A stretch of DNA of 64,000 bases from Escherichia virus KFS-EC. Below are positions 1,496 to 39,634 of this stretch, one piece after another (position 1 is the first letter of the stretch; the number at the start of each line of letters is the position of its first letter). Under the pieces are notes generated by a model that saw only the letters and a program-made list of their open reading frames with translations, was not told the origin of the DNA and ran no database searches. Made by a program: the position numbers and the translations under genes. The DNA lies in sequence record MH560358, one strand, 5' to 3'.

Positions 1496-1527
1496 TTTGA
1501 TTCTCCGTTTGTTGTCTTGATGGGAGT

Positions 1528-1556
1528 ATCTTACTACTCCCTTTAATCATTGTCAA
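1528..1556 (-). promoter_or_regulatory. sigma70-like promoter TTGACA-N17-TAAGAT; hairpin GGGAGTAGTAAGATACTCCC (1522-1541) overlaps the -10
   Basis: Read on minus strand upstream of gene 1316-1495. Confidence 0.5.
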
Positions 1557-1559
1557 CTA

Positions 1560-1727
1560 TTATTTGTTAATTTCCGGTGCGTTGCTCGGATAGTAACCTT
1601 CTTTAACACCTAGATATTTTGCAACCATTCCGGTGATCTTCTGTGCTACTACGATATCGAATTTCAGGTAGTCTTCACCGTGGTTTGCTACAATGTATGC
1701 TTCGCATTCTGCTTTAGTCTGGAACAT
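1560..1727 (-). CDS. hypothetical small protein (55 aa)
   Basis: ORF-track frame; start moved to internal ATG (MFQTKAEC...) because the track N-terminus translates the promoter; SD AGGAG upstream. Confidence 0.4.
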   Translation of the reverse strand: MFQTKAECEAYIVANHGEDYLKFDIVVAQKITGMVAKYLGVKEGYYPSNAPEINK

Positions 1728-1761
1728 TTTTGATTCTCCTATATCTCGTTGGTATGTGTGC

Positions 1762-1790
1762 ATTATAGGGGATCGGTGATCCCCTGTCAA
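1762..1790 (-). promoter_or_regulatory. sigma70-like promoter TTGACA-N17-TATAAT with palindromic spacer GGGGATCACCGATCCCC
   Basis: Exact consensus hexamers with 17-nt spacer on minus strand upstream of gene 1560-1727. Confidence 0.6.
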
Positions 1791-1795
1791 CAACT

Positions 1796-2089
1796 TTATA
1801 ATGCTTTATATGCGTATTTCATAAATTTGTCTGCCACTTCATTGGCATGTTCAGATTCTACGCCTGATTCGAGAACAATAGCTAGGTCGGTTTCGTCATT
1901 CCCGCCGTACCAATGATTTGATGTTCGATTTTTTTCAATTGGAAATTGGTCACTTTTATCTGTGCGACAAAATACATCTAAATGCTCGTCGATGTAAAAG
2001 ATCCAATCTTCATAAAGAATAACGGTATTAGCAAGATTTTTATTGCCTTCAACGAAAGGTTCGGCTACAAACAAATTAGTATGTTCCAT
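1796..2089 (-). CDS. hypothetical protein, paralog family A member
   Basis: ORF-track frame; start at internal ATG (MEHTNLF...) with SD GAGGAAAA; motif IFYIDEH...SNHWYGGNDETDLAIVLE. Confidence 0.5.
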   Translation of the reverse strand: MEHTNLFVAEPFVEGNKNLANTVILYEDWIFYIDEHLDVFCRTDKSDQFPIEKNRTSNHWYGGNDETDLAIVLESGVESEHANEVADKFMKYAYKAL

Positions 2090-2105
2090 AGTATTTTCCT
2101 CAAAA

Positions 2106-2297
2106 TTATACAGCTTCGTAAACTTCCCAATGTCCAACACCAGCACGCTTAACGAAAAGGTTTTCTTTGATGTTATTCATAAACGTCTGGATGGATTTAA
2201 TGCGGTTTGAAGGTTTCCATTCTTCGTTGGCATTGCGTCGATACATCATAACATTACCAGTTCGCTTATATTCAGCAACCATTTTAAGACCACACAT
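2106..2297 (-). CDS. hypothetical small protein (63 aa)
   Basis: ORF track; ATG with SD GAGGA upstream. Confidence 0.35.
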   Translation of the reverse strand: MCGLKMVAEYKRTGNVMMYRRNANEEWKPSNRIKSIQTFMNNIKENLFVKRAGVGHWEVYEAV

Positions 2298-2354
2298 AAT
2301 ATTATCCTCAATTTGTGGGAGAGTATTACCCCTCCCAATGATTGTTATGTTATA

Positions 2355-2675
2355 TCACACAAAATGGCGTGTCAATGCTTCTTTTGCGGTTCCGCTAAGA
2401 CTTTCGATCTCGCCTGGCATAACATCAACCGCCAGAACTTCTACAACATCCTCGGACCCTAACCAGTGAGTATGACCTTTGTAGAACTTGATAACCAGAC
2501 TACCTTCCTCGTCCCATTTAACGCTATCGCTAGCCCACCACACATCACCGTCGATAAAGTTGATGTAAAGCACACTACGCCACATTGAATTAATTACTTT
2601 CAATACTGCGCCTTTCATCTCTTCCACGGTATGGTCTTCCATTTTGAAGACCTCACCTACCTGAACTTTTGCCAT
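2355..2675 (-). CDS. hypothetical protein, paralog family A member
   Basis: ORF track, ATG start; motif LYINFIDGD...HTHWLGSEDVVEVLAVDV. Confidence 0.5.
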   Translation of the reverse strand: MAKVQVGEVFKMEDHTVEEMKGAVLKVINSMWRSVLYINFIDGDVWWASDSVKWDEEGSLVIKFYKGHTHWLGSEDVVEVLAVDVMPGEIESLSGTAKEALTRHFV

Positions 2676-2692
2676 TTAGTCACCTCTCTTTA

Positions 2693-2872
2693 TTACATAA
2701 CACTCACGCCAGCCGTTGAAAGTTGATGTTTCAACTGAGCATTTTCTGCTACCGTCAAATCAATGATTTCTTGTGACGCTGCAATCATATAGCCATTGGT
2801 GATATTGTTTTGCATCAGTTCAATGGTTTCTTCGTTGTAGCGGATTTTAGCGATGATTTCGTTGAAGTTCAT
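2693..2872 (-). CDS. hypothetical small protein (59 aa), not in ORF track
   Basis: ATG at 2872 after GGAGAATCAATT leader and stem-loop promoter; TAA at 2693. Confidence 0.35.
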   Translation of the reverse strand: MNFNEIIAKIRYNEETIELMQNNITNGYMIAASQEIIDLTVAENAQLKHQLSTAGVSVM

Positions 2873-2906
2873 AATTGATTCTCCTAGTTCGTTTCGGTAT
2901 GTGTGT

Positions 2907-2936
2907 AGTATAGGGGAGTTTAACCTCCCCTGTCAA
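2907..2936 (-). promoter_or_regulatory. sigma70-like promoter TTGACA-N18-TATACT with palindromic spacer GGGGAGGTTAAACTCCCC
   Basis: Minus-strand motif upstream of gene 2693-2872. Confidence 0.5.
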
Positions 2937-2944
2937 CAACTTTT

Positions 2945-3256
2945 TTAAAGTTTTTCCATGATAACGGTCATAATTACATCTTCTGCGCGAGCGGTCAGAT
3001 TATCAGCGTCAGCATGTGGGCGGTTGGTTGTTACAGAGATAACACCGTTGCGCACTGGTTTGATATTGATATCAAGATGATCCGCGAAACGTTCGCCAGT
3101 TACAGAATGAATTTTGGTGTTAAATTCTTTTGCCAGTGCCTTGCGAACTTCACGAATCAGGATAGCGTTTTTCAGTTGGTTCTCCGCGCTCATGGTCTTC
3201 TGGGTGTTCATGGTTCCGTCGAAGTCAATCATTGGCAGCGTTACGATGTATTTCAT
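2945..3256 (-). CDS. hypothetical protein (103 aa)
   Basis: ORF track, ATG start after GGAGAATCAAAA leader. Confidence 0.45.
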   Translation of the reverse strand: MKYIVTLPMIDFDGTMNTQKTMSAENQLKNAILIREVRKALAKEFNTKIHSVTGERFADHLDINIKPVRNGVISVTTNRPHADADNLTARAEDVIMTVIMEKL

Positions 3257-3301
3257 TTTTGATTCTCCGTTTAAGAAAGTGTGTTTCGTTTTGATGTGTG
3301 T

Positions 3302-3330
3302 AGTATAGGGGATACGTGATCCCCTGTCAA
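3302..3330 (-). promoter_or_regulatory. sigma70-like promoter TTGACA-N17-TATACT with palindromic spacer GGGGATCACGTATCCCC
   Basis: Minus-strand motif upstream of gene 2945-3256. Confidence 0.5.
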
Positions 3331-3343
3331 CAACTTTTTTGAA

Positions 3344-3688
3344 TTATTTTTTCATGAGCTTAATGGCTTCTTCCATAGCCAGCACATTTCGATAGTTAGG
3401 GTATCGTGTTAGATCGTCATACATTCGCTTAAGGGTGGAAACTTCCTCAAACTCTGGGTTTTCTAGATACAGTTGAACAAATTGTTTCTCTACCATCTCG
3501 GCTTTTAGCTTGTCTGCTTGTTCCTGTTCATATGATTTCGTTGGACCCAACACCAACAAAATGATAAAGGTGATCAACGGGCTAATGATCAATGATAGGA
3601 TAACATAACCGATAACGCTACGGTTTAAACGGCTTGCATACATGCCTACCAGGAAAACAAAAAGGATATAGATAAACAGAAAGAACAT
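3344..3688 (-). CDS. hypothetical membrane protein (two predicted hydrophobic segments)
   Basis: ORF track; N-terminal FFLFIYILFVFLVGMYA and second hydrophobic stretch. Confidence 0.5.
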   Translation of the reverse strand: MFFLFIYILFVFLVGMYASRLNRSVIGYVILSLIISPLITFIILLVLGPTKSYEQEQADKLKAEMVEKQFVQLYLENPEFEEVSTLKRMYDDLTRYPNYRNVLAMEEAIKLMKK

Positions 3689-3695
3689 ATAATGG

Positions 3696-6684: not shown

Positions 6685-6720
6685 AATTTTCTTACCTCTT
6701 CAATTCATCTCAATAGTAAA

Positions 6721-7332
6721 TTATTTATATTTCGCGACCTTTGGATTTCTCCGCAGACCGGAATGTATTTGCGCTATACAACAATAAGAAACATTAAACA
6801 TATCAGCTATAATTTGCTTCTTAACTTTTCCTTTAAGCCGCATTATTTCTTCGACTTGCGCATTTGTCAGTTTTGCCCGTGAGTGGTTTTCACCGACATT
6901 GTTATTGAGTCCAGTTCTAAATGAATGTCTCATATTTTCTAGTAAGGTTACTATTTCTAGATTCCACACATAATTGCAGGTTTTTACACCATTGATGTGA
7001 TTAACCTCAAGTCCGGTAACGTCTCCTAGAAATGCATTTGCTACAAGTCGATGTATCTTTTCGGCTTTAACTGAGATTTTACCATTGTCTTTTTGTTTTG
7101 ACAATGTTGAATAATAATATCCATATCGGTCTAAAATTGGTTTTATTATTTTACCAGCACGTTTTTGTTTTACGAGCTTAATATTACCGGGAGAAACTTC
7201 TCTATAAAATTCGATACTTCGGTCAATAGATCTCAATCTACCATAATTAGAGATTTCATACCACGGATAACCTACAGCTTGTCTCCATTCTTCCGGCGCT
7301 GGTAATACGATATTATCATCTTTTGTTTCCAT
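6721..7332 (-). CDS. HNH homing endonuclease with NUMOD4-like N-terminal motif
   Basis: WRQAVGYPWYEISNYGRLRS (NUMOD4-like) followed by HRLVANAFLG...EVNHINGVKTCN (HNH_3); start at internal ATG. Confidence 0.7.
   Translation of the reverse strand: METKDDNIVLPAPEEWRQAVGYPWYEISNYGRLRSIDRSIEFYREVSPGNIKLVKQKRAGKIIKPILDRYGYYYSTLSKQKDNGKISVKAEKIHRLVANAFLGDVTGLEVNHINGVKTCNYVWNLEIVTLLENMRHSFRTGLNNNVGENHSRAKLTNAQVEEIMRLKGKVKKQIIADMFNVSYCCIAQIHSGLRRNPKVAKYK
6722..6729 (-). promoter_or_regulatory. T4-type late promoter box TATAAATA
   Basis: Exact TATAAATA on minus strand about 40 nt upstream of gene 31 start. Confidence 0.4.
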
Positions 7333-7334
7333 TG

Positions 7335-7655
7335 TCAACTACCACCGTAAATTTCTACGATCTGTGCTGGAGTCAGCCCGTCTACATTAATCAGACTATC
7401 AAGCCCAAAACTACGGAAACCTTCAACTGCAATTTCATATACTGGCAAAGATGTTTCTGATTCTTTACGCGGTTTTTCAACATTAGGAACTAACCACTTT
7501 TCGTATGTTTCGAAAGGCATCAGTGCCGGATCTCGCGTGGCGATCATCTCGCGGACAGTACCATCTTTCTTAGTAAACTGCAAAGAGTGAGTACCGACCG
7601 AAAACATTTTCTTTAGTGCTTCACGAAGTGCGATATTATCAATTTGTTCGGTCAT
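7335..7655 (-). CDS. hypothetical protein (106 aa)
   Basis: ORF-track frame; start moved to internal ATG (track start is TTG). Confidence 0.4.
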   Translation of the reverse strand: MTEQIDNIALREALKKMFSVGTHSLQFTKKDGTVREMIATRDPALMPFETYEKWLVPNVEKPRKESETSLPVYEIAVEGFRSFGLDSLINVDGLTPAQIVEIYGGS

Positions 7656-11690: not shown

Positions 11691-12089
11691 TTAACTTTCC
11701 AGAATATCGCGAGCTTCGTTACGATCCTTGATGATTTTCAAGACAAATTCCAGTTTTTCTTTGTTCAGCGTTCCATTTTCCATTGCTTCTTTGACGGTAA
11801 ACACTCCGCCACCTTGCCCGTATACAGTGACAGTGATTTCACCTAACATCGTGGTATGAAAACCGCCAATTTTCGGTGATTCGAAAGAAACAATTACCTC
11901 GCGAACAGTATTACCGTCGTTGATTTCTGAGAGGGTAATGTCGTTTTTGTAGGCGGTTGCTTTAACCATACGGATCAGCATAGTCTGATCTGGGGAGATG
12001 GTCATTTTGTCCATTGTATGTTGCAATGCAGCGTAACCGAAAACTTTAACGAAGTCCAGAACGTCTTTGCGAGTTTGAAATTTAATCAT
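11691..12089 (-). CDS. hypothetical protein (132 aa)
   Basis: ORF track, ATG start after stem-loop promoter. Confidence 0.4.
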   Translation of the reverse strand: MIKFQTRKDVLDFVKVFGYAALQHTMDKMTISPDQTMLIRMVKATAYKNDITLSEINDGNTVREVIVSFESPKIGGFHTTMLGEITVTVYGQGGGVFTVKEAMENGTLNKEKLEFVLKIIKDRNEARDILES

Positions 12090-12122
12090 CTTGATACTCC
12101 TTAGTTGTTTTGGTATGGGAGT

Positions 12123-12151
12123 ATCTTACTACTCCCGTGATATGCTGTCAA
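12123..12151 (-). promoter_or_regulatory. sigma70-like promoter TTGACA-N17-TAAGAT; hairpin GGGAGTAGTAAGATACTCCC (12117-12136)
   Basis: Minus-strand motif upstream of gene 11691-12089; hairpin identical to the one at 1522-1541. Confidence 0.5.
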
Positions 12152-12159
12152 CTGCTTTT

Positions 12160-12309
12160 TTATGCAACCGCAAACATCAACATTTGAACATTCTTGGCTG
12201 TCTGGCTTTCAAAGTTCTGACATTCTTTGATAATGTCCTCTACTTTCTCGCCGGAGATCTCCGCGTAAGTTTCGATTGCCATTTTCAGTACCGCGTCAAA
12301 GTTGTTCAT
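12160..12309 (-). CDS. hypothetical small protein (49 aa), not in ORF track
   Basis: ATG at 12309 after GGAGAATCAAATG leader; TAA at 12160. Confidence 0.3.
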   Translation of the reverse strand: MNNFDAVLKMAIETYAEISGEKVEDIIKECQNFESQTAKNVQMLMFAVA

Positions 12310-12347
12310 TTGATTCTCCTTAAAGTGTATTTCGTTTCGATGGGGGT

Positions 12348-12376
12348 ATATTACTACCCCCGTTTCATGCTGTCAA
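12348..12376 (-). promoter_or_regulatory. sigma70-like promoter TTGACA-N17-TAATAT; hairpin GGGGGTAGTAATATACCCCC (12342-12361)
   Basis: Minus-strand motif upstream of gene 12160-12309. Confidence 0.5.
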
Positions 12377-12595
12377 CTACTTTTTAATGACAAGTTCGAA
12401 TTTTGCTACCTTGCGTCCTCGTTTATTGAAAGCAACCCACGGACGGTTTTCAATGTAGAACAATTCTTCGCCAATAATGAATACTGGCTGATTGTAAAGG
12501 CGACCCATCAGGTCACGCTGGCGAATGGTAGTAGATTCGTATACTTCGCCTACTACAAAGTGCTTGCTGATAGAGTCGGTGCAAGTAAATTTCAT
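12377..12595 (-). CDS. hypothetical protein (72 aa)
   Basis: ORF track, ATG start. Confidence 0.4.
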   Translation of the reverse strand: MKFTCTDSISKHFVVGEVYESTTIRQRDLMGRLYNQPVFIIGEELFYIENRPWVAFNKRGRKVAKFELVIKK

Positions 12596-12628
12596 TTTGA
12601 TTCTCCTTTGTTTCGTTTCGATGGGGGT

Positions 12629-12658
12629 ATATTACTACCCCCGTTATTCAGTGTCAAC
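12629..12658 (-). promoter_or_regulatory. sigma70-like promoter TTGACA-N18-TAATAT; hairpin GGGGGTAGTAATATACCCCC (12623-12642)
   Basis: Minus-strand motif upstream of gene 12377-12595; hairpin identical to 12342-12361. Confidence 0.5.
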
Positions 12659-12664
12659 TACTTT

Positions 12665-12883
12665 TTACTTGTTGTATTCATTCCACCATTGGGTTAGCTT
12701 ATCAATTATTTTTGTGTTTCTATCCAACTTCTCCCACCGTTTTCTAGGGTTTATCAACCGGAATAGGTAAGGTGTACTTGTTAAGTGAACTCGGTCAATG
12801 TAGTGATTGATGTACTGCTTTTCGATTCTAAGTTTCATCTTTTTACGATGAAAATATGCAATGACTTGTTCTTCTGTTTCCAT
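12665..12883 (-). CDS. hypothetical protein (72 aa)
   Basis: ORF track. Confidence 0.4.
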   Translation of the reverse strand: METEEQVIAYFHRKKMKLRIEKQYINHYIDRVHLTSTPYLFRLINPRKRWEKLDRNTKIIDKLTQWWNEYNK

Positions 12884-14618: not shown

Positions 14619-14633
14619 TAATTCACCTCACTA

Positions 14634-15172: not shown

Positions 15173-15201
15173 ATTATAGCGGGGATTTCTCCCCGCGTCA
15201 A
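15173..15201 (-). promoter_or_regulatory. sigma70-like promoter TTGACG-N17-TATAAT with palindromic spacer CGGGGAGAAATCCCCG
   Basis: Just downstream of nrdA stop on minus strand, upstream of the small-gene trio and nrdB. Confidence 0.55.
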
Positions 15202-20042: not shown

Positions 20043-20070
20043 ATTATACATCATCTGTGTTCGGCGTCAA
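20043..20070 (-). promoter_or_regulatory. sigma70-like promoter TTGACG-N16-TATAAT
   Basis: Minus-strand motif upstream of gene 19682-20011. Confidence 0.5.
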
Positions 20071-20396
20071 CCTTTTTGTTCCATGAAAAGCGGTGCTGTT
20101 TCTTCTTTCAGTTTAATAACTAGCGCGGAAACTTCATCAAGAAAATCTTTTTCCATATGAGCAAGCATTGATTTAGAATCTTTGATGACTCTCAAAGAAT
20201 ATTCACTTAGATTTCCTTTTCCTAACAATAATGCGGGACACACACTATGTGGGATCTCGATTTCATGATATTCACTCATAGTATAATATTTGTGAATTTT
20301 TAAATCTATATTTCTTCGTTGTACGTCTACATCAGCAATGACATACAGACGTTCGATTTTATCACTTTTTTGAGAAAGGGTAGCATTCAAAAACAT
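20067..20396 (-). CDS. hypothetical protein (109 aa)
   Basis: ORF track. Confidence 0.45.
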   Translation of the reverse strand: MFLNATLSQKSDKIERLYVIADVDVQRRNIDLKIHKYYTMSEYHEIEIPHSVCPALLLGKGNLSEYSLRVIKDSKSMLAHMEKDFLDEVSALVIKLKEETAPLFMEQKG

Positions 20397-20426
20397 TGTT
20401 AATCCTCCGTTGTTTCGATGTGTGTA

Positions 20427-20454
20427 TTATACATTACCACATCAGCATGTCAAC
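20427..20454 (-). promoter_or_regulatory. sigma70-like promoter TTGACA-N16-TATAAT
   Basis: Minus-strand motif upstream of gene 20067-20396. Confidence 0.5.
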
Positions 20455-20478
20455 ACCTTTTTCATAAAATTTTAGGCA

Positions 20479-20505
20479 ATAAAAAAGCCTCCCCGAAGGA
20501 AGGCT
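20479..20505 (-). terminator. rho-independent terminator (GC hairpin plus T6) after gene 32
   Basis: AGCCTTCCTTCGGGGAGGCT hairpin followed by TTTTTTATT on minus strand, downstream of gene 32 stop. Confidence 0.55.
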
Positions 20506-20515
20506 TTAAAATTCA

Positions 20516-21520: not shown

Positions 21521-21548
21521 ATTATACAGATTTAAATTTACTTGTCAA
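21521..21548 (-). promoter_or_regulatory. sigma70-like promoter TTGACA-N16-TATAAT upstream of gene 32
   Basis: Exact consensus hexamers on minus strand. Confidence 0.55.
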
Positions 21549-28867: not shown

Positions 28868-28871
28868 TTAA

Positions 28872-28889
28872 AGGGGGCGAAAGCCCCCT
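28872..28889 (+). promoter_or_regulatory. intercistronic stem-loop AGGGGGC-GAAA-GCCCCCT (GNRA loop) between genes 34 and 35
   Basis: 7-bp GC stem with GAAA tetraloop, no T-run, 12 nt before gene 35 ATG. Confidence 0.45.
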
Positions 28890-28900
28890 ATGGGGTTATT

Positions 28901-30040
28901 ATGACACAAGAGATAGAATTACGCAATACTGGAATTAAGTTTGCGCATTTCGACGAAGACTCCGCGACATTTACAAGCATTTCAGAAAACAACTCTGTGA
29001 TGTATAAGCTGGAAGTGCGCGGATCTAATGCGGATTCTTCCAAACCAGCAAGGATTAGATTTAATGGAGTGGAGATCGTCGGGACTGGCTATGAAACTGG
29101 CCTAAATTTTAAAGTTCTTACTCCAACTGGAAAACTACACGAAGAAAAGGTATTCTATGGTCGCGGTGCTGTTTTGGCAATGCGTGATTATCTTTCTTTG
29201 TTGAAAGGTGACTATATCATTGCGATGGCAACGCATGGAGAATTGTTTGCAGATCCGATAAGTGATGTTGTATTTTCTAAGATGGGATCTGTATCATTCC
29301 CGAATCACATTTTGTTACAGCAAATTCCTCGTGTATCCTATGCAGCAATTTATTCTACTAAAATGGGTAAAATTGTGTGCGAAGGGATGCAAGCAACGCA
29401 CGGAGAAGGTCAAGATTCGTCTATACAAATTGAGAAGGTTTATGATACTATAGATGATCTTGCGGTCACAGGAACACCACAACGATTTTTAGATTATCCG
29501 GTTGAGTATGTTAGCGAAGATGCCGAACATTTCGAGCTAATACAATGGCCTCATGATGAGATCAGCGCACCACTTGAATATTTTAACATAAAGGCAGGTG
29601 ACAAACTATCAATATCCTTTGAATTGTTCCGTGATAGTGCCGCAGCCGCAGCCAACGTAACAGCGCGTTTCTATCACAACTACTTCACTGATGGACAATA
29701 TCAAACTGGCGTTCGTTATAATGCCAGCCAGAAAGATCAATGGGAAAAGTTTGAAGCCGTCTATACCGTACCGGAAGGAGTTGATAGTGTTGCCACTGGT
29801 TGTATCAGATATCCAACCAACTCAAATGAAGGTATTGTTAAAATTAGAAACATACTAATAACGCCGATCAGTGGAGTCGTCAAAACTACTGGTCCTACTT
29901 CATTTGGTGTTAATGGTGTTAGAACAACTCATATTCAGGATAACGGTGATTTTACTAACCCTGTAATGAGTCTTCTTAAACTGCCTAGAGATAATAAACA
30001 CATCACATCCAACAACTTTAAAGAGTTCGATGTTGATTAA
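28901..30040 (+). CDS. 35: tail fibre hinge protein (gp35-like)
   Basis: 379 aa; position between 34 and 36. Confidence 0.6.
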   Translation: MTQEIELRNTGIKFAHFDEDSATFTSISENNSVMYKLEVRGSNADSSKPARIRFNGVEIVGTGYETGLNFKVLTPTGKLHEEKVFYGRGAVLAMRDYLSLLKGDYIIAMATHGELFADPISDVVFSKMGSVSFPNHILLQQIPRVSYAAIYSTKMGKIVCEGMQATHGEGQDSSIQIEKVYDTIDDLAVTGTPQRFLDYPVEYVSEDAEHFELIQWPHDEISAPLEYFNIKAGDKLSISFELFRDSAAAAANVTARFYHNYFTDGQYQTGVRYNASQKDQWEKFEAVYTVPEGVDSVATGCIRYPTNSNEGIVKIRNILITPISGVVKTTGPTSFGVNGVRTTHIQDNGDFTNPVMSLLKLPRDNKHITSNNFKEFDVD

Positions 30041-30051
30041 CATTTTTAACA

Positions 30052-30083
30052 AGCCGATCCTCGTGGTCGGCTTTATTTTTATA
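30052..30083 (+). terminator. rho-independent terminator (AGCCGA...TCGGCT hairpin plus T-run)
   Basis: Downstream of gene 35 stop on plus strand. Confidence 0.5.
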
Positions 30084-30201
30084 CAGTTGGTTAAAACATA
30101 ACCAAAACGAAGAAAGATCTTTAGAATAATAGAAAATTTGTTTCGGTTAAAAAATAGTCAGTGCCTACGGCACGTCGCGAAGCGATATTTTGTTAACATT
30201 C

Positions 30202-30209
30202 TATAAATA
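30202..30209 (+). promoter_or_regulatory. T4-type late promoter box TATAAATA
   Basis: Exact TATAAATA about 34 nt upstream of gene 36 ATG. Confidence 0.5.
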
Positions 30210-30242
30210 CTCGGAACTATAACTAATTTTTGAGGTTACTTT

Positions 30243-31733
30243 ATGGCAGATTTGAAACATGGATCTACTGTAGGCGGATCTCCCATTTGGACGCAAGGAA
30301 ACTTGACGATCCAGCCAGCGGGGGATCAGCTTTTCTACAAAGGTCATAAAATCTATACCGCTTTTGATAAACCTTCGGCTGCCGATTTTGATGCTGTTAG
30401 TGCTAAAGACGGTGGCACATTTCAAAAGCAGGTCCATTTTGAGGAAGGTTTAAGCGTCGGTAGTGCATCGGCTGGAGAAACCAAAAAGAACGGGATCTTT
30501 AAAGGAAATAGTGATGCGGCTAACTTTGATGGTGTAAGTTGGGGTTTCCATTCGTGGAAATCTATTGGTTTTGTTAATGCTCGTGATGATGTTATCATGG
30601 CTTATATTGACACTACCACAGGTGATTTTAAAACTAAAGGGACTATCGAAGGGACAACCATTAAAGACACAGGTCAACGCGTCTATAGCCCTGTTAATAA
30701 ACCAACGAATAATGATTTAGATTTGGTGTCTCGTCGCGGTGATACCCTCACAGGAACATATAATTTAAACACTGTCACTGTTAAACTATCGGTTGATTCG
30801 AAATTAATTGCAAGGGAACGTGATTTAATTAATTTTGATGCGACTAAGATCTATTATGGTAACGTTCTTGATACGTTGGTCTTCCGAAGTAAAGATGAGC
30901 CTACCATTTTTGTTAATGGCAGAGAAGGTCGTTTTTATCACACCAACAATAAACCAACTAAAGCCGATGTTGGGCTAGGCAATGTCACCAATGATGCACA
31001 GGTTAAACGTGCTGGTGATATTATGGAAGGTAACTTGCAAGCGCCTAGAATGTTGGCGACAAACGATCCGGCTGGTCCTAATGAATTGGTTCGTTTGAGC
31101 TACTTTGAGAGAAAATCAATGGTAGCAAATCCAACCATCATAGGAAACGTTGATTGGAACACTCTTATTAATCGCGGTATCTATCGTGTGGAAAATGCTG
31201 GGTCAGGTACTAATAAACCGTCTGATAGCTATTATAACGGCGTTTTGATGGTATATCGCCCAGAAGATGCGGTCGGTACTCGTCGAATTGTTCAGGTGTA
31301 TTATCCTGAATCTATTGACCATCCGATGTGCTGGCGTTCGTGTTCTAATGAATCATGGACTGCATGGAACTATGTAGATCACCGTAAATTGGCTGATATT
31401 CGCTATGTTAACGTAACTGGAGATACCATGACAGGACCGTTAACTGTTCCGGCTGCAAACGGTGTTAGCACAGCTAGAGGTGCATATAATGGTGATAACT
31501 ACTATGCTGGGTTAAATAGTGCCGATGGCACGGCTATGATTCACCGTATCAGCGATATTAAAGCCACTGAAAAATTGGGTATTACACATGATTCGAAAGC
31601 TGTTTTCGTTAAATCGCGTGGAAATACTCAAGCCACCGACCGCTATGAACTTTACCACGAAGGGCATAAACCTACCCCTGCCGAAGTTGGCGCGGTTCCG
31701 CTCAATGCGGTAATTGATTTTGGTACTTTCTAA
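30243..31733 (+). CDS. 36: tail fibre protein, gp36-like N-terminus with extended C-terminal region
   Basis: MADLKHGSTVGGSPIW N-terminus; 496 aa. Confidence 0.7.
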   Translation: MADLKHGSTVGGSPIWTQGNLTIQPAGDQLFYKGHKIYTAFDKPSAADFDAVSAKDGGTFQKQVHFEEGLSVGSASAGETKKNGIFKGNSDAANFDGVSWGFHSWKSIGFVNARDDVIMAYIDTTTGDFKTKGTIEGTTIKDTGQRVYSPVNKPTNNDLDLVSRRGDTLTGTYNLNTVTVKLSVDSKLIARERDLINFDATKIYYGNVLDTLVFRSKDEPTIFVNGREGRFYHTNNKPTKADVGLGNVTNDAQVKRAGDIMEGNLQAPRMLATNDPAGPNELVRLSYFERKSMVANPTIIGNVDWNTLINRGIYRVENAGSGTNKPSDSYYNGVLMVYRPEDAVGTRRIVQVYYPESIDHPMCWRSCSNESWTAWNYVDHRKLADIRYVNVTGDTMTGPLTVPAANGVSTARGAYNGDNYYAGLNSADGTAMIHRISDIKATEKLGITHDSKAVFVKSRGNTQATDRYELYHEGHKPTPAEVGAVPLNAVIDFGTF

Positions 31734-31738
31734 TATTA

Positions 31739-31765
31739 GCGGGGATTATCTCCCCGCTTTTCTAA
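31739..31765 (+). terminator. rho-independent terminator (AGCGGGGATTATCTCCCCGCT plus TTTTCT)
   Basis: Downstream of gene 36 stop on plus strand. Confidence 0.5.
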
Positions 31766-31803
31766 ATAATATTATTCTAATAACCGTTTAAGGATTTTAT
31801 AAA

Positions 31804-34566
31804 ATGGCAGATTTAAACAGAATCCAGTTTAAACGCACTAGCGCAGCCGGACGTAAACCGGATGCTGGTACGATGAATCCGGGAGAGTTGGCAATTAACT
31901 TAGCAGACCAATATCTGCTTACAAAAAATGATGGTGGGCAAATTGTTAATTTAAGCTGCCCTCCAGTTTATGACAAGAGCGTTAATGTAAAAGGTCGTGT
32001 GGTTGCAGATGACCTTATGTGGAGTAATACCGCAAACTATTTCGATGACCCGACCGCACGAAATCTTGATAAATTTGGGGCATTTCGTACTAATGATATG
32101 GATGGTCATCTAGCACTTGCTTTGCATATTCCCCATCCTAGCGGTATAAATCATGCTCGTGGGTTTGATTTTACTTATGGTTCTAACGTTGTTCCTACTG
32201 TAAAAACCTATGGTTATAACGCTGATGGTGTATTGGCATATTCATATCGCATGTATCACGAAGGTGATAAGCCTAGTCCGTCAGAATTAAATGTATACAG
32301 CAAACAAGAAGTAGACCGGATGTTCCAGAAGACCATCAACTTTGGTGTAGAAACTGGATGGTTTAAAATTGCTACCGCCTTTATTCCGCAAAATGATGGA
32401 CGTAGCTTGAAAATTAGATTGATTGGTGGAAGTGGGTGGAACGTAGGACAAACTGGACAATGTAATATTATTGAACTTGTTATAAGGACTAGCAACGGTT
32501 CGCCTAAAGGAATTAACTTTGTTGCGTATCATCATGTTTCTGGTTACGAAAATCAATTTTGTGCCATTAATACAGGTGATGACACTTATGATATCTATGC
32601 ATATTACTTCGAATTTACTAATATGGTAATGGCTGAATATCAAGCGTCCAGCGGTGTTAATTTAACTGTACTTGATCGACCTGAATATGTCGGCGAAAAA
32701 CCTGTAGCTGATCATATCTATGATGCATATACAATATACTCCTTTAACAGTTTCAGTAACCGTGGAACGTTAAATTTTGCTGGAAACCCTCAAGGCCAAT
32801 ATGACATTGAGCATTTGAACGTGCAACAAACTAACAGCAAAAAGATGTTGCGTCGCTTCCGTAGTTCTGGTCCTGCCACTATCTGGCATGAGACAGTTGA
32901 TGATAACCAGTATCGTCTTGCTACTGGATACGAAGATACAAATCAGGAATTATTGCTGACAGCAACATCCGGGTTACATGTCAAGAAATTAACATTGGAT
33001 GGCGGTGTCACTGGAAATTCTGGTATTGATATTCGTCGAGGACCAAACGAATCAAGCCATTTTAATTTCATGGATTATCGCACTGGACAAGATGTTCGTA
33101 ATGGTTGGTTTGGTTTTGGTGATGGAACAACCAAAGATTTTATTTGGTGGAACGATAACGGTCAAAACTCTATAAACCTGATTGAAGACGGTGAATTACA
33201 TATTACTGGCGGTAGAGGCCAGAAAATTGTAATGAATAGCGAAGTTGCATTATCTGAAAATGCTCGTTTGGCTGTTAAAGGTGGCAATTATGGCTTAATT
33301 TTTAGAAATGATGGCGTTGGCTTCCATATTCTTACCACAGATCTCGGTGATTCATTTGGACCGTGGAATACTCGTAGACCATTCAGCTATGATTTTGCGG
33401 ACGGTGGATTGTATTTAGGTGGTACTGCAACCGCTCGTTGTTTGCATCTGGGAATTGATGGTAGCACTCGTCTCGAAGACAACCTTTTCTTTAAAGCTGG
33501 TTCTCGTCAATCTATGGACTATATGGAACTAGTCCATTGGGGGGCAAGCAATACAGGTCGAAATAACGTTTTAAGTCTTCGTGACTCAAAAGGATTTTTC
33601 GCAGAATTTGAACGATTGGGTGATGATACCATTAAAAACACCTTCTTCGGGAAACTTAAAGTTAATCGTGGTTCTGACGCAATCGTCATGAATGCCGAAA
33701 CGGGTGATTCGTCTATATATTTGCTGGGTACTTGTGCTGATAATAACAACTGGTATATCGGTAAAGGTGGTGCTGATAATGGATTAGCGTTCTATAGCTA
33801 TGCTACTAATGCTGCTATCAATATTACAAACGCTGGTGATATCGCGCTAAGTCCAAAAGGTGTCGAAATGACTCATGTCAATAACGTTCGATTCTATGTT
33901 CATGGTGAACGTTGGACTGCTAGCCAATCTGGAGGCTGGGGCGATCAATGGGGATTAGAAGCGCCGATATTTGTCGATCATGGTTATGTTGGACCAGATA
34001 GCTATTATCCAATTATTAAAGGAAGAAGTTTAATCACCAATCAAGGGTATACAACTGCCGTCGATTTTGGTCTTCGTCGTGTTCCTCAAAATTGGGGGCA
34101 AGCTATTATTCGTGTTGGATCTGCGGATGCATCGCCAGCGGCTGGTCATCCTCAAGCTGTATTCGAGTTCCATCATGATGGTACTTTCTATTCTCCTGGT
34201 AATGGTAACTTTAACGATGTTTATATTCGTTCCGATGGTCGTCTGAAAATTAATGTTGAAGATTACGAAGAAAATGCGGTGGATAAGGTAAATAAACTCA
34301 AAGTTAAAACCTACGATAAAGTTAAATCTCTTAATGACCGAGAAGTTATAGGTCATGAGATTGGTATTATCGCACAGGATTTACAAGAGGTATTACCGGA
34401 AGCTGTTAAAACCGCAAAAATTGGTGGTCTTGATAACCCAGAAGAAATTTTAACAATTTCAAACTCCGCAGTGAACGCGCTTTTAATTAAAGCGGTCCAA
34501 GAAATGAGCGAAGAAAATAAACTTCTTCGTGAACGTCTTGCTGCAATTGAAGCTAAATTAGGGTAA
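31804..34566 (+). CDS. 37: long tail fibre distal subunit with C-terminal chaperone-like domain
   Basis: MADLNRIQFKRTSAAGRKPDAG...GELAINL N-terminus; 920 aa; C-terminal SDGRLKINVE...GIIAQDLQEVLPEAV...coiled-coil tail. Confidence 0.85.
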   Translation: MADLNRIQFKRTSAAGRKPDAGTMNPGELAINLADQYLLTKNDGGQIVNLSCPPVYDKSVNVKGRVVADDLMWSNTANYFDDPTARNLDKFGAFRTNDMDGHLALALHIPHPSGINHARGFDFTYGSNVVPTVKTYGYNADGVLAYSYRMYHEGDKPSPSELNVYSKQEVDRMFQKTINFGVETGWFKIATAFIPQNDGRSLKIRLIGGSGWNVGQTGQCNIIELVIRTSNGSPKGINFVAYHHVSGYENQFCAINTGDDTYDIYAYYFEFTNMVMAEYQASSGVNLTVLDRPEYVGEKPVADHIYDAYTIYSFNSFSNRGTLNFAGNPQGQYDIEHLNVQQTNSKKMLRRFRSSGPATIWHETVDDNQYRLATGYEDTNQELLLTATSGLHVKKLTLDGGVTGNSGIDIRRGPNESSHFNFMDYRTGQDVRNGWFGFGDGTTKDFIWWNDNGQNSINLIEDGELHITGGRGQKIVMNSEVALSENARLAVKGGNYGLIFRNDGVGFHILTTDLGDSFGPWNTRRPFSYDFADGGLYLGGTATARCLHLGIDGSTRLEDNLFFKAGSRQSMDYMELVHWGASNTGRNNVLSLRDSKGFFAEFERLGDDTIKNTFFGKLKVNRGSDAIVMNAETGDSSIYLLGTCADNNNWYIGKGGADNGLAFYSYATNAAINITNAGDIALSPKGVEMTHVNNVRFYVHGERWTASQSGGWGDQWGLEAPIFVDHGYVGPDSYYPIIKGRSLITNQGYTTAVDFGLRRVPQNWGQAIIRVGSADASPAAGHPQAVFEFHHDGTFYSPGNGNFNDVYIRSDGRLKINVEDYEENAVDKVNKLKVKTYDKVKSLNDREVIGHEIGIIAQDLQEVLPEAVKTAKIGGLDNPEEILTISNSAVNALLIKAVQEMSEENKLLRERLAAIEAKLG

Positions 34567-34604
34567 TTGGAAAGCGGGGAGAAATCTCCGCTAAGGATTC
34601 TTAT

Positions 34605-34928
34605 ATGGGATATTGGGTAAGTAGTGAAATTAATACTAAAATCGATGCTTTAAAATGGCATGTATTTGATATTCCTAACGGCTATGGTACTGCTCGTGCT
34701 GGTGTCGCTGTAATGCGTCATAATGCTGGTGGTGGGTGGTCTGATGCACATATTAACGTAGATGGTTTGACCGTTGCTCGTCGTCGTGGTGGGACCAATT
34801 GGGGATCTACTATAAATTCGTTTGTTCCTGCTGGCTGCACCGTCTCCTTTGGTTTAGGGGGTGAAGGTGGTGACTCAGAATTGCTTTTGCATGGCTTTTG
34901 TGTGTCTGGAAGTCATAAGGGGTCATGA
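34605..34928 (+). CDS. hypothetical glycine-rich protein downstream of gene 37
   Basis: 107 aa; GGGW, GGEGGD glycine-rich stretches; SD AAGGA upstream. Confidence 0.4.
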   Translation: MGYWVSSEINTKIDALKWHVFDIPNGYGTARAGVAVMRHNAGGGWSDAHINVDGLTVARRRGGTNWGSTINSFVPAGCTVSFGLGGEGGDSELLLHGFCVSGSHKGS

Positions 34929-35087
34929 TTGGGGACAGATCCATTCTTGTATTGTGCCGCAGGGAGTAACGATCACGGTAACTACAAACAGGGGTATTTC
35001 CCATCTTCGTTATAGACGCTTGAGCAACCGTTAAAAAAAGAATTAAGGAAAACTCCCAGGGAAGGGAACTACTAAGGAGAAACGGCT

Positions 35088-35306
35088 ATGGTCTATAATA
35101 TCGTCATTGGTGCTTTGTCTAATTTCGGAATGAAACTATTGTCAAAGTTAATTAGTGAAAAGATGCTCACTAAAATTTTCTTCTATTGCGCTCGTCGTCT
35201 TGCGGCTTATACCAATACGCCAATTGATGATCGTTTTGTGGAAGAACTTTATAAGGAGTTTAATAAAGATCAGTCAGAAGATAGCAACGAGCAAAATAAA
35301 AAATAG
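35088..35306 (+). CDS. hypothetical small protein (72 aa)
   Basis: ORF track; SD AAGGAGAAA upstream. Confidence 0.35.
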   Translation: MVYNIVIGALSNFGMKLLSKLISEKMLTKIFFYCARRLAAYTNTPIDDRFVEELYKEFNKDQSEDSNEQNKK

Positions 35307-35361
35307 TGATAGTCAAGTACCTAAATAAGAGTACACTGTCATAGTTATCTTAGGGCATTAT

Positions 35362-36018
35362 ATGCAAGTTTCTGAAAAAGGGAAAGACTTTTCTATCTCA
35401 AATGTCCTGCGCGCTATTTTCACAACTAAAAGCACGGAGTTGCTCGTACTTCGTGTTTTTGCTGCCGTCGTGTTGTCCATATTAGCATTTGTCGTTTATA
35501 GTAAAAACGAGTTATTTGCGCTTTATAAAGAGACTCGTTATGAGACTTATGCTCACGTTCTCCAGGTAGAGAAAGACCGCAATTTTGATAATGCAGCACA
35601 GGAGCAGTTACAGATAGTTCATGTGTCGGCTGATGCCGATTTTTCTGCTGTTTTTAGTTTTCGTCCGAAAAACCTAAACTATTTTGTTGATTTGGTGGCA
35701 TATGAAGGAAAGTTACCGCATACAATCGATGAAAAAAATTTAGGCGGATTCCCTATCAATAAAACGAGTGAAGAATATCGTAGGCATCTTTTAGGTAAAT
35801 CCTATTTTACCGATAAAGATTTCCAGTATATTCCATCAAGAGAAAAGAAATTAGAGAGTATCGATATAGGGGTTATGTATTCTTGTCCTATATTCAATCT
35901 CGACAATGTCTATTCTGGTAGTATCTCCATTGCATGGAAGAATAAACCGGATATTGACATTGAGAATTTAGATACTCTTTGCAATCAATCTGCCAGAATC
36001 CTCGGAAGGATTAGATAA
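35362..36018 (+). CDS. t: holin (T4 t family)
   Basis: 218 aa; single N-terminal TM (VLRVFAAVVLSILAFVVY) then large periplasmic domain; position after tail-fibre genes. Confidence 0.85.
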   Translation: MQVSEKGKDFSISNVLRAIFTTKSTELLVLRVFAAVVLSILAFVVYSKNELFALYKETRYETYAHVLQVEKDRNFDNAAQEQLQIVHVSADADFSAVFSFRPKNLNYFVDLVAYEGKLPHTIDEKNLGGFPINKTSEEYRRHLLGKSYFTDKDFQYIPSREKKLESIDIGVMYSCPIFNLDNVYSGSISIAWKNKPDIDIENLDTLCNQSARILGRIR

Positions 36019-37790: not shown

Positions 37791-37800
37791 GATGTAATCC

Positions 37801-37992
37801 TCACTTATCGTTAAGAAGTTCTAAAACTTTCTGTCGTACTTTGTCAATATTAGTTGATTCAAAAACTGTACGGTATCCCCAGCTTTGACCGTATGAGCGG
37901 TTGCAATCTCCATATCCCCATTGTTCAACCTGATAGTATTCAAGGAATGGGTGCTGCCGAACTATGATACCATCGCGATTAAAAATTACCAT
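37801..37992 (-). CDS. hypothetical small protein (63 aa)
   Basis: ORF track. Confidence 0.35.
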   Translation of the reverse strand: MVIFNRDGIIVRQHPFLEYYQVEQWGYGDCNRSYGQSWGYRTVFESTNIDKVRQKVLELLNDK

Positions 37993-38015
37993 AATATAAT
38001 CCTCACGTCAACAAC

Positions 38016-38297
38016 TTATTTTCGGTTGTACTTCTGCCACTTTCGGTAATACTGCTTGTAAAATTGTTTTGCGTTTTCACCATCTTTACTATACATGTTA
38101 TCTACCATCAAGTCAATAAGACCTCCCGGTGTCTGGTAGTTCCCCGCTCGGATAAGTTCTTTAATTAAATTGTCCTGATGATCTTTGTATACTACGTTAA
38201 TGATGGTCTTTTCTGCTTTCTTCGTCCCGATCATCCGGTGATTAGCTTTCATCGCATCCCACCAATCTTTTGTGATCTTCATGTTATTGAATTGCAT
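38016..38297 (-). CDS. hypothetical basic protein (93 aa)
   Basis: ORF track. Confidence 0.4.
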   Translation of the reverse strand: MQFNNMKITKDWWDAMKANHRMIGTKKAEKTIINVVYKDHQDNLIKELIRAGNYQTPGGLIDLMVDNMYSKDGENAKQFYKQYYRKWQKYNRK

Positions 38298-38308
38298 AAT
38301 TTAACCTC

Positions 38309-39067
38309 TTACTTGCAAACGTATTGATCTACATCAATTGCGCCACCGAATGTAGGATGACGTTTTTCGAATCGAATAGTTCCGTCGTTTGGTTCGAAAA
38401 CGGAGTATTCATATAGATCTTTCTTGCCAACATTCTTATAAAACCCGCCTTTAGTCATAACGGTTTCTTGTACGTTTGCTTTGTGTACGTTGTATTCATC
38501 AATGTATACAAAATCAACCATCTTCCCATTTTTAATTGTTACTTTAAGATCTCCTGGTTGGTTTCCATATTTTGCATACAGTGGGGCTTCTTTAATTTTG
38601 GTGGAAATTCCATCTTTCATACTCCACTCATAACGAACGGTGCATTGATAGGTAAAAGTTTCGACCTTCGGTTCTTCTACAACTTTTGCTTCCTGTTTCG
38701 GTTGTTCTTCGTCAACCTTCGCAGAAGTCTCTGAATCGCTTTCCGACGCAGTTTCTTCTTTAGGTAATACATTCATCAAGTTTTGAATTTGAGCGTTATA
38801 TACAGCCTCCAGTGGCTGAATCTGCCCGATATTGATCATTGTATCACGAACAGTTTTATTCCAGTTGCGTTGCTCTTGTTTAAGCGACAGATCAATCTTA
38901 ACAGCCTTAACATATACTTCATGAAGTTTAGAATCCAGTGCGGAGATTGACTCATTGGCACAAATAAACTTCTCTGATTTGGTAGTGGCTTTAGCGCAAT
39001 CAAAGGACGCAGCATTAGCACCGAAAGCAGTAGCAGAAAGAACGATAGCAGCGATAATGTTTTTCAT
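38309..39067 (-). CDS. secreted protein with DUF1311/LprI-like (lysozyme-inhibitor-type) N-terminal domain
   Basis: Signal peptide MKNIIAAIVLSATAFGANA-AS; then FDCAKATTKSEKFICANESISALDSKLHEVY...EQRNW pattern; own promoter. Confidence 0.55.
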   Translation of the reverse strand: MKNIIAAIVLSATAFGANAASFDCAKATTKSEKFICANESISALDSKLHEVYVKAVKIDLSLKQEQRNWNKTVRDTMINIGQIQPLEAVYNAQIQNLMNVLPKEETASESDSETSAKVDEEQPKQEAKVVEEPKVETFTYQCTVRYEWSMKDGISTKIKEAPLYAKYGNQPGDLKVTIKNGKMVDFVYIDEYNVHKANVQETVMTKGGFYKNVGKKDLYEYSVFEPNDGTIRFEKRHPTFGGAIDVDQYVCK

Positions 39068-39101
39068 AATATATTCCTCAATGTTTTGTCTTGATGGGAG
39101 T

Positions 39102-39130
39102 ATCTTACTACTCCCTTAATCCGGTGTCAA
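39102..39130 (-). promoter_or_regulatory. sigma70-like promoter TTGACA-N17-TAAGAT; hairpin GGGAGTAGTAAGATACTCCC (39096-39115)
   Basis: Upstream of gene 38309-39067; hairpin identical to 1522-1541 and 12117-12136. Confidence 0.5.
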
Positions 39131-39137
39131 CTACTTT

Positions 39138-39293
39138 TTAAATTTCTTCTACAGTAAAGTCTTCAATGTTGTTGTGCTCGGAGAACGTTGCCAGACCAGC
39201 ATTCCATGCATCATCCTCAGAGAAGAATACACCGTAACGTTCATATCCTTTAGCGCCTTCAAATTTAATCATTAATTTGTGAGTATGTTTCAT
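39138..39293 (-). CDS. hypothetical small protein (51 aa)
   Basis: ORF-track frame; start at internal ATG after GGAGAATCAAA leader. Confidence 0.35.
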   Translation of the reverse strand: MKHTHKLMIKFEGAKGYERYGVFFSEDDAWNAGLATFSEHNNIEDFTVEEI

Positions 39294-39324
39294 TTTGATT
39301 CTCCTTCGTTGTCTTGATGGGTTT

Positions 39325-39353
39325 AGTATAGGGGATCGCCGATCCCCTGTCAA
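39325..39353 (-). promoter_or_regulatory. sigma70-like promoter TTGACA-N17-TATACT with palindromic spacer GGGGATCGGCGATCCCC
   Basis: Upstream of gene 39138-39293. Confidence 0.5.
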
Positions 39354-39363
39354 CATCTATTTT

Positions 39364-39576
39364 TTAATTTTTACCCGCTCGTGCATTAATACGCATTTTC
39401 TGCATAGCCATGATCTGGCTTACTGCTTCTTCTTTACGTTCTTGCGTGATAACGTGACCAGATTCCGCAAACTCTCCCGCAACTTCTTCTACGATCTCGC
39501 GAACTTGAGAACGTCCAAAGATGCGGTTTCCTTCGTAGCTCATAAATTCAGTCACTACTTGCTCAATAGATTTCAT
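39364..39576 (-). CDS. hypothetical small protein (70 aa)
   Basis: ORF-track frame; start at internal ATG after GGAGAATCACATG leader. Confidence 0.35.
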   Translation of the reverse strand: MKSIEQVVTEFMSYEGNRIFGRSQVREIVEEVAGEFAESGHVITQERKEEAVSQIMAMQKMRINARAGKN

Positions 39577-39605
39577 GTGATTCTCCTTTCGTTTGGTATG
39601 GGAGT

Positions 39606-39634
39606 ATAATACTACTCCCATTTCTTTACGTCAA
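39606..39634 (-). promoter_or_regulatory. sigma70-like promoter TTGACG-N17-TATTAT; hairpin GGGAGTAGTATTATACTCCC (39600-39619)
   Basis: Upstream of gene 39364-39576. Confidence 0.5.

Follow-up and report, generated by a model that had tools for sequence, protein, structure and literature searches.

The genome of Escherichia virus KFS-EC (sequence record MH560358) raises the question of why identical hairpins should recur at distant loci within a stretch of 64,000 nucleotides, which is the whole of the DNA analysed here and is referred to as the window. The original prediction saw in this recurrence a sign of cassettes copied and pasted by recombination. The answer, to which we assign a probability of about 0.9, is that the hairpins are the stem-loop parts of promoter-early stem-loops (PeSLs), elements that combine a promoter with an attenuator of read-through transcripts and recombine by homology between their copies. 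PeSLs have already been described for RB49-like T4-type coliphages, specifically RB49 and phi1 (Arbiol et al. 2010, Genome Biol Evol 2:140; PMC2839356), and a known system has thus been rediscovered. Judging from its sequence, the window belongs to a Krischvirus (RB49-like) genome, its first 25 kb having matches in 74 phage records, the best of them (96-97% identity) to the Krischvirus members PHB13, pEJ01, RB49, JSE and ECD7. The 20-nt identity at distant loci has two causes, namely selection for a stable hairpin on the sense strand and repeated exchange between copies.

On the minus strand there are three exact copies of GGGAGTAGTAAGATACTCCC, at 1522-1541, 12117-12136 and 39096-39115, together with a loop variant differing by two mismatches, GGGAGTAGTATTATACTCCC, at 39600-39619, and GGGGGTAGTAATATACCCCC is present at 12342-12361 and 12623-12642. 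A second type, GGGGATC-NNN-GATCCCC, has two exact copies (1768-1784 and 39331-39347) and an imperfect one at 3308-3324, GGGGATACGTGATCCCC, in which one arm mismatch leaves a 6-bp stem and a 5-nt loop. The coordinates and minus-strand orientation of all nine copies are therefore as originally predicted, and only the perfect stem at 3308-3324 has to be given up. Copies are not expected by chance, as dinucleotide-preserving shuffles gave no match to the hairpin families. The claimed constant register relative to a minus-strand TTGACA is likewise real and takes two forms: all six GGGnGTA-type hairpins start 9 nt past TTGACA or TTGACG, and all three GGGGATC-type hairpins start right at the end of TTGACA and occupy the whole 17-nt spacer. 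Further members of the same kind, absent from the earlier list, lie at 2913-2930, 15179-15196, 47175-47196 and 47539-47568.

Every listed copy sits in a gap of 70-90 bp separating small minus-strand open reading frames (ORFs), and the order of parts in these cassettes is the same: the stop codon of the upstream ORF within an A-rich tract (of the form ..TAAAAAGTAG or AAAAAGTTG), TTGACA, a 17-nt spacer, a TATAAT-like hexamer, a conserved CAT(C/A) start region, GGAG(AATCAAA) and ATG. The stop codon motif ..TAA AAAGTAG/AAAGTTG TTGACA is found at each site, and leaders of the GGAGAATCAAAATG type, with Shine-Dalgarno sequence and start codon, form the 3' end of the cassette. A near-consensus sigma-70 promoter is thus present at all nine sites (TTGACA or TTGACG, the 17-nt spacer, and TAAGAT, TAATAT, TATTAT, TATAAT or TATACT as the -10 hexamer). 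In the six GGGnGTA-type copies the -10 hexamer (TAAGAT, TAATAT or TATTAT) lies within the loop and 3' arm of the hairpin. Under standard spacing the last base of these hairpins would be position -1. Hairpins of either type all end upstream of the predicted +1 and would thus never be part of the transcript of their own promoter. Three further elements (-35 at 40135, 20453 and 12934) carry a canonical hairpin with a T-run just upstream of the -35 box. The elements to which the argument below refers are the following.

1493..1565, minus strand: PeSL between the homologues of ORF205 and ORF204; -35 TTGACA at 1556-1551; hairpin GGGAGTA-GTAAGA-TACTCCC at 1522-1541 (fold -11.9 kcal/mol, z -4.5); -10 TAAGAT at 1533-1528 in the loop and 3' arm; GGAG Shine-Dalgarno sequence; ATG at 1495.
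1725..1800, minus strand: homologue of PeSL206/205; -35 at 1790-1785; hairpin GGGGATCACCGATCCCC at 1768-1784, forming the entire 17-nt spacer; -10 TATAAT at 1767-1762; ATG at 1727.
2870..2945, minus strand: homologue of PeSL210/209; -35 at 2936-2931; spacer hairpin GGGGAG-GTTAAA-CTCCCC at 2913-2930; -10 TATACT at 2912-2907; ATG at 2872.
3254..3352, minus strand: PeSL211/210; -35 at 3330-3325; imperfect spacer hairpin GGGGATCACGTATCCCC at 3308-3324; -10 TATACT at 3307-3302; ATG at 3256.
12087..12165, minus strand: PeSL226/225; -35 at 12151-12146; the identical 20-mer hairpin at 12117-12136; -10 TAAGAT at 12128-12123; ATG at 12089.
12307..12390, minus strand: PeSL227/226; -35 at 12376-12371; hairpin GGGGGTA-GTAATA-TACCCCC at 12342-12361, with a compensated A-T to G-C pair; ATG at 12309.
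12593..12670, minus strand: PeSL228/227; -35 at 12657-12652; hairpin at 12623-12642; ATG at 12595.
15173..15201, minus strand: element upstream of nrdA; TTGACG at 15201-15196; spacer hairpin GCGGGGA-GAAA-TCCCCGC at 15179-15196; TATAAT ending at 15173.
20043..20506, minus strand: cassette with early promoters at both ends (-35 at 20453 and 20070) enclosing an ORF at 20067-20396; canonical hairpin and T-run terminator at 20481-20506, upstream of the 20453 promoter.
39065..39145, minus strand: PeSL263/262; -35 at 39130-39125; the identical 20-mer hairpin at 39096-39115; ATG at 39067.
39291..39375, minus strand: PeSL264/263; -35 at 39353-39348; spacer hairpin GGGGATCGGCGATCCCC at 39331-39347; -10 TATACT; ATG at 39293.
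39574..39656, minus strand: PeSL265/264; -35 TTGACG at 39634-39629; hairpin GGGAGTA-GTATTA-TACTCCC at 39600-39619; -10 TATTAT; ATG at 39576.
40107..40176, minus strand: PeSL of the class with the stem-loop upstream of the -35 box; intrinsic terminator AGCCGATC-CTTGTG-GTCGGC-TTTTTT at 40151-40176, then TTGACT (40135-40130)-N17-CATAAT.
47175..47211, minus strand: PeSL; hairpin GGGGATAT-ATCATA-ATGTCCCC at 47175-47196 enclosing the -10 CATAAT, its stem with one U·G wobble on the sense strand; -35 at 47211-47206.
47539..47578, minus strand: PeSL; long stem at 47539-47568 (13 pairs including one G·U in the predicted fold; -21.3 kcal/mol, z -6.0) with the -10 TATAAT in its loop, followed by TTTTCTTTT; -35 at 47578-47573.

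The PeSLs are clustered at 1.5-3.4 kb, 12.1-12.9 kb and 39.1-40.2 kb, corresponding to RB49 ORFs 204-211, 225-228 and 262-266, respectively; they have the orientation of the early genes. The whole window has 48 promoter-like sites (TTGACN-16..18-TAnnnT) on the minus strand vs one on the plus strand, a census that leaves out elements with CATAAT or AATAAT as the -10 hexamer (40135, 47211, 12934 and 53290), which came from the repeat search described below. In the public annotation of the relative GEC-3S promoters are marked in the gaps between small ORFs across this region. Rfam, searched with the whole window at gathering thresholds, matched no family. The ORFs flanking the cassettes are ORFans with no relation to one another, and nine of the ten tested lack any Pfam match. 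The exception is the ORF262 homologue (252 amino acids, 38309-39067, minus strand), located just downstream of the PeSL with the -35 box at 39130, which weakly matches the lysozyme inhibitor family LprI of Pfam (PF07007) with an E value of 6e-5, slightly above the curated cut-off.

What such elements do is known for this window by transfer from the literature, most directly at PeSL211/210, a 93-mer of which (the element with the -35 box at 3330) is 100% identical to its RB49 counterpart. RB49 and phi1 each contain some 51-52 PeSLs, concentrated in hyperplastic regions upstream of ORFans; in each, an AT-rich tract precedes near-perfect sigma-70 boxes, and a G(n)-loop-C(n) stem-loop is mostly situated between the boxes or over the -10 box (PMC2839356). 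The stem-loop of RB49 PeSL211/210 cut lacZ read-through to about the same degree as rrnB T1, and the promoter of RB49 PeSL206/205 reached about 13,000 Miller units (PMC2839356); the element at 1790 in the window is the homologue of the latter, with a different loop (ACC in the window, GGT in RB49). Gain and loss of ORFs between RB49 and phi1 was mapped to PeSLs, and circular products of ORF192 and ORF210 with crossovers inside PeSLs were recovered from both phages by inverse PCR and sequenced from infected cells and virions (PMC2839356). The ORF210 homologue of the window (2945-3256) is likewise flanked by PeSLs (3330 and 2936). Compared with the RB49 and phi1 PeSLs, those described here share the genus, 96-97% nucleotide identity, architecture, hyperplastic regions, ORF numbering and places of insertion and deletion (e.g. 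ORF211 and ORF263.1), and nothing essential differs, although the isolate has its own set of hairpin variants and cassettes: site 2936 carries GGGGAGGTTAAACTCCCC in the window vs GGGGATCACCGATCCCC in RB49, and its cassettes include all of ORF226, ORF263 and the ORF at 20067-20396. The PeSL concept has been extended to other T4-like phages by Comeau et al. 2014 (PMC4122927). The elements of PST/T4 and nt-1/KVP40 are similarly composites of promoter and stem-loop that are concentrated in hyperplastic regions and go along with indels between closely related phages, but their promoters (TTTACW..TAYWAT and TTGYVH..TAWWAT, respectively) and stems (AGNA-loop-TCNT and A3-4G3-loop-C3T3-4) are unlike the near-perfect sigma-70 boxes and G/C stems of the RB49 type seen in the window.

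The scenario that we favour runs as follows. Host sigma-70 RNA polymerase would start early transcription at each cassette, and the hairpin would be confined to RNA that reads through from the cassette upstream, and would there attenuate or terminate transcription (for both steps the published reporter data serve as a guide); each small ORF would in this way be insulated as a separate unit. Because some 20 similar copies of 45-80 bp exist in one orientation, the efficient homologous recombination of the phage could produce crossovers between them, which would delete, insert or replace the intervening ORFs and homogenise the hairpin modules. The exchange step is supported by the comparative genomics presented below as well as by the published sequencing of mini-circle junctions (PMC2839356).

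The first evidence comes from the extent of similarity among the copies. An unbiased search for direct repeats in the window returned the cassettes as its top nine families (25-79 nt, down to 60% identity to the reference copy), so that the similarity exceeds the promoter hexamers, contrary to the outcome named in the original prediction as refuting it. The longest exact words common to cassettes are one of 35 nt, shared by 12376 and 12657, and one of 32 nt, shared by 1556 and 39130 at a distance of 37.5 kb. Most exact repeats of at least 18 nt lie within cassettes; outside them are an internal repeat of gene 34, a pair around 47.0 kb and a word at 267-284. The gene 34 repeat, among the few outside any PeSL, is a 41-nt direct repeat (27104-27144 and 27410-27450, 83% identity, 306 bp apart) inside the proximal tail-fibre ORF. 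In a comparison anchored on TTGACA the similarity extends from about -26 to +57, spans 45-79 nt between cassettes and ends at the ORFs, with none in the flanking ORFs themselves; the repeated unit is the regulatory element only and includes no gene. Tandem paralogy of ORF227 and ORF228 was ruled out as the cause of their near-identical upstream elements, as the two proteins are unrelated. The 9 nt separating the -35 box from the hairpin vary between copies, and the three identical 20-mers are kept at their own orthologous sites in most relatives, so that the identity does not reflect recent duplication.

The second line of evidence is provided by relatives. We aligned positions 1-49,000 of the window to eight Krischvirus genomes (pEJ01, RB49, phi1, PHB13, JSE, ECD7, G2248 and GEC-3S) and listed discontinuities of at least 100 bp. 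The rearrangement breakpoints anticipated by the original prediction are there: at 10 of the 19 structurally variable loci a breakpoint falls within a PeSL, with PeSL intervals making up about 4% of the sequence (binomial p = 4e-7 vs the sequence fraction; p = 0.003 vs a null restricted to intergenic junctions, whose fraction of 0.22 is an estimate). Three clean cassette deletions each leave one chimeric cassette, and the alignments overlap by 27-95 bp across the junction. The ORF226 cassette (12164-12298) is absent from JSE and ECD7, the partners being PeSL226/225 and PeSL227/226, and the ORF263 cassette (39145-39342) is absent from pEJ01, PHB13 and GEC-3S, with PeSL263/262 as a partner. The ORF at 20051-20402 is missing in PHB13 and JSE, replaced in pEJ01 and represented by an endonuclease gene in RB49, phi1 and GEC-3S; the breakpoints of this variation in the 20043..20506 cassette fall in its promoters. 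The presence or absence of ORF211 has its left breakpoint at 3351, within PeSL211/210. A 272-bp insertion in phi1 (ORF263.1) is located at 39367-39374, in the AT-rich part of PeSL264/263 upstream of the -35 box, and insertions in PHB13 (356 bp) and GEC-3S (502 bp) lie around 39635-39656, in the AT-rich tract just upstream of the -35 box of PeSL265/264. A 469-bp deletion in ECD7 ends at PeSL265/264 (39574..39656) and the PeSL at 40107..40176, and pEJ01 has insertions of 236 bp at the 40107..40176 element itself (40073-40109) and of 589 bp at the 47539..47578 element itself (47578-47610).

Some structural variation in the same region has other sources. Homing or HNH endonuclease genes are variably present among the relatives, unrelated to PeSLs, at 6707-7348, 24522-25092, 14612-14973 and 21489-21556 (the ORF at 6721-7338 is annotated as an HNH endonuclease in ECD7 and that at 24511-25092 as a homing endonuclease in PHB13), and they are a second, independent source of indels. 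Of the distal tail-fibre gene (ORF 31804-34566), the 3' part lies in a variable region spanning 32324-35035 and can be aligned to the relatives only over 34199-34515, at about 74% identity. Seven of the eight relatives lack a stretch of 519 bp (34515-35035, with an ORF at 34605-34928), and G2248 is rearranged differently there; the variation across 32324-35035 is probably a swap of a host-range module.

Exchange on a finer scale is visible at single sites. Orthologous sites were located by anchoring on 120 nt of downstream coding sequence. At the sites compared this anchor is 98-100% identical, and the hairpin modules next to it differ in multi-base blocks. Site 2936 has GGGGAGGTTAAACTCCCC, GGGGATCACCGATCCCC or GGGGATCGGGAGATCCCC depending on the phage, with a point variant of the first (GGTGAGGTTAAACTCCCC) in G2248. 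The loop at site 1790 is ACC, GGT or GGGA, and five variants occur at site 12657, among them GGGGGTA..TACTCCC, a chimera of two arms. Such differences represent short-patch exchange between copies. The breakpoints, the chimeric cassettes and these swaps together support the copy-paste idea of the original prediction, with the qualification that hairpin identity by itself is no proof of mobility, since selection on the hairpin also maintains identity.

That selection is indicated by the stems. The listed copies fold as RNA into stems of 6-8 bp with -10 to -15 kcal/mol (z -2 to -5), and over all elements stability ranges from -10 to -21 kcal/mol (z -2 to -6). Pair 4-17 shows a compensatory change between AU and GC (GGGAGTA/TACTCCC and GGGGGTA/TACCCCC), and two pairs change between GGGGATAT/ATATCCCC and GGGTGTAT/ATACACCC, namely 4-19 (GC/AU/UA) and 5-18 (GC/AU). 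In the covariation analysis 96-100% of cells are paired, and the observed score was reached by 9 of 500 and 0 of 500 shuffles. Among hairpin variants from the window, its relatives and IMG/VR fragments, the mismatches on the sense strand comprise seven independent G·T or T·G and no A·C (binomial 0.008). Two IMG/VR scans, with the ORF225 protein and with the exact 20-mer, together gave three contigs with the motif, and GenBank relatives were used instead. A bias towards G·U would favour a structure acting in sense-strand RNA, consistent with an action on read-through transcripts. As the 9 nt next to the hairpin vary and the stems show compensatory and G·U-only changes, selection on the hairpin also keeps the copies identical.

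Comparison with intrinsic terminators is instructive here. The PeSL stem-loops resemble them in being GC-rich hairpins right past a stop codon, and those at 47539-47568, 40151-40176 and 20481-20506 are complete hairpins with a T-run; the first of these is a predicted canonical intrinsic terminator with an embedded promoter. The nine listed hairpins differ in that they lack a U-tract, are situated inside the next promoter and are followed by a TATAAT-like hexamer or ATCAAG (in full, TATAAT/TATACT or ATCAAG/ATACCA, with no U- or T-run). The listed spacer-type and -10-overlapping hairpins were therefore rejected as canonical intrinsic terminators, being without a U-tract and negative in the scan mentioned next.

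Several observations weigh against the PeSL interpretation as formulated above. A simple terminator scan detects none of the nine listed hairpins, all of which are without a U-tract. Measurements of terminator activity are confined to a single spacer-type stem-loop in another phage (PMC2839356) and do not include the GGGAGTA type. The count of G·U vs A·C mismatches is small and could be biased by poly-G slippage. The predicted +1, on which exclusion of the hairpin from its own transcript would depend, is placed by hexamer spacing. Finally, 9 of the 19 variable loci lie elsewhere than at PeSLs, including the homing-endonuclease insertions and the tail-fibre region.

A different view of the exchange, which we consider unlikely but which may hold for part of the events, is that it is driven by hairpin structure, through replication stalling with template switching (copy-choice) or cruciform cleavage, the promoter sequence being incidental. 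One observation in its favour concerns the hairpin at site 1790 (1768-1784), whose loop is ACC in the window, pEJ01, phi1, PHB13 and GEC-3S, GGT in RB49, JSE and ECD7, and GGGA in G2248. ACC vs GGT is an exact inversion of the palindrome, mention of which we did not find in PMC2839356, and the pattern suggests either hairpin-templated switching or exchange with another copy. Such an inversion would be the signature of template switching within a hairpin, but with so few variants of a 3-nt loop, one flip of this kind would be expected by chance at roughly 5%. In the G2248 orthologue of 3254-3352, PeSL211/210 has undergone a partial tandem duplication (..TCCCCTATACTACACACATCAAAACGAA GGGGATCACGTATCCCCTATACTACACACATCAAAACGAA..) whose repeat starts at the hairpin of the 3330 element, the RB49 ORF210 mini-circle has its crossover inside the loop, and sequencing polymerases stalled at PeSL stem-loops without betaine (PMC2839356), all of which agrees with a role of structure. 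Against it, several junctions lie in the AT-rich tract or the leader and not in the hairpin (the ORF263 and ORF226 deletions, the phi1 and PHB13 insertions), and the 20051-20402 cassette recombined between the promoters 20070 and 20453, neither of which has an embedded hairpin. Should the hairpins nonetheless be active recombination hot spots, formed in single-stranded DNA during replication and driving template switching or structure-specific cleavage (a notion that we judge improbable to the same degree), cassette loss and gain, very short conversion tracts confined to the hairpin and the loop inversion would all be explained, and the shuffling of PeSLs would be directed by structure in an attC-like way, with no integrase involved.

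Turning back to PeSLs recombining by homology, an alternative that dispenses with exchange altogether is that the copies are alike solely as independently constrained strong promoters, shaped by the needs of polymerase contact and spacer. The identical 20-mers conserved at orthologous sites, the element upstream of nrdA that is identical in all eight relatives, and the 9 nt that differ between copies and show no recent wholesale duplication are what it would predict. It is very unlikely all the same, as different stems (GGGGATC, GGGGAG, CGGGGA, GGGAGTA, GGGGGTA and GGGTGTAT) share the promoter position with compensatory changes, which means that structure is kept rather than polymerase contacts; promoters free of hairpins exist (20070, 21548 and 53290); and the chimeric junction cassettes and multi-base swaps beside 98-100% identical downstream sequence need exchange. 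This alternative is thus largely refuted.

We also give scarcely any credence to the idea, raised by Arbiol et al. (PMC2839356), that the hairpins are sites for a dedicated site-specific recombinase, like integron attC sites folded from single-stranded DNA. The array is integron-like in its small, promoter-equipped ORFan cassettes, circular excision products and imperfect boundary hairpins, and integron attC arrays and phage morons similarly combine small, individually expressed accessory ORFs with such repeated hairpins and reported circles. However, no integrase, excisionase or recombinase was found in RB49 or phi1 (PMC2839356), none of the ten cassette ORFs tested has a Pfam recombinase domain (no dedicated integrase search of the window was made), crossovers are spread over an element of about 100 bp with no fixed site, and the stems are too variable for one sequence-specific site. 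Unlike attC arrays, PeSL cassettes have no known integrase, no fixed crossover and a promoter for each cassette, and unlike morons, the PeSL system has the regulatory sequences themselves as exchange points. Selfish repeats resembling miniature inverted-repeat transposable elements or repetitive extragenic palindromes were rejected, as the hairpins always stand in a fixed promoter register and never alone.

PeSLs represent one of the few concrete mechanisms proposed for the shuffling of accessory genes in large lytic phages, being conserved regulatory linkers through which small ORFs are both expressed and relocated. The window adds another isolate that fits the PeSL model and widens the comparison, originally made between two phages, to nine genomes, in which breakpoints are again enriched in PeSLs. 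The sense-strand G·U bias, the hairpin swapping at orthologous sites and the loop flip are additions that bear on whether the stem-loop acts as RNA or DNA, a point left open in the original papers; no new question is opened here. One further observation concerns the plus-strand tail-fibre block (25127-36018), where the promoter census (TTGACN-16..18-TAnnnT) counts zero sites, which would be consistent with late transcription of this block from a different type of promoter.

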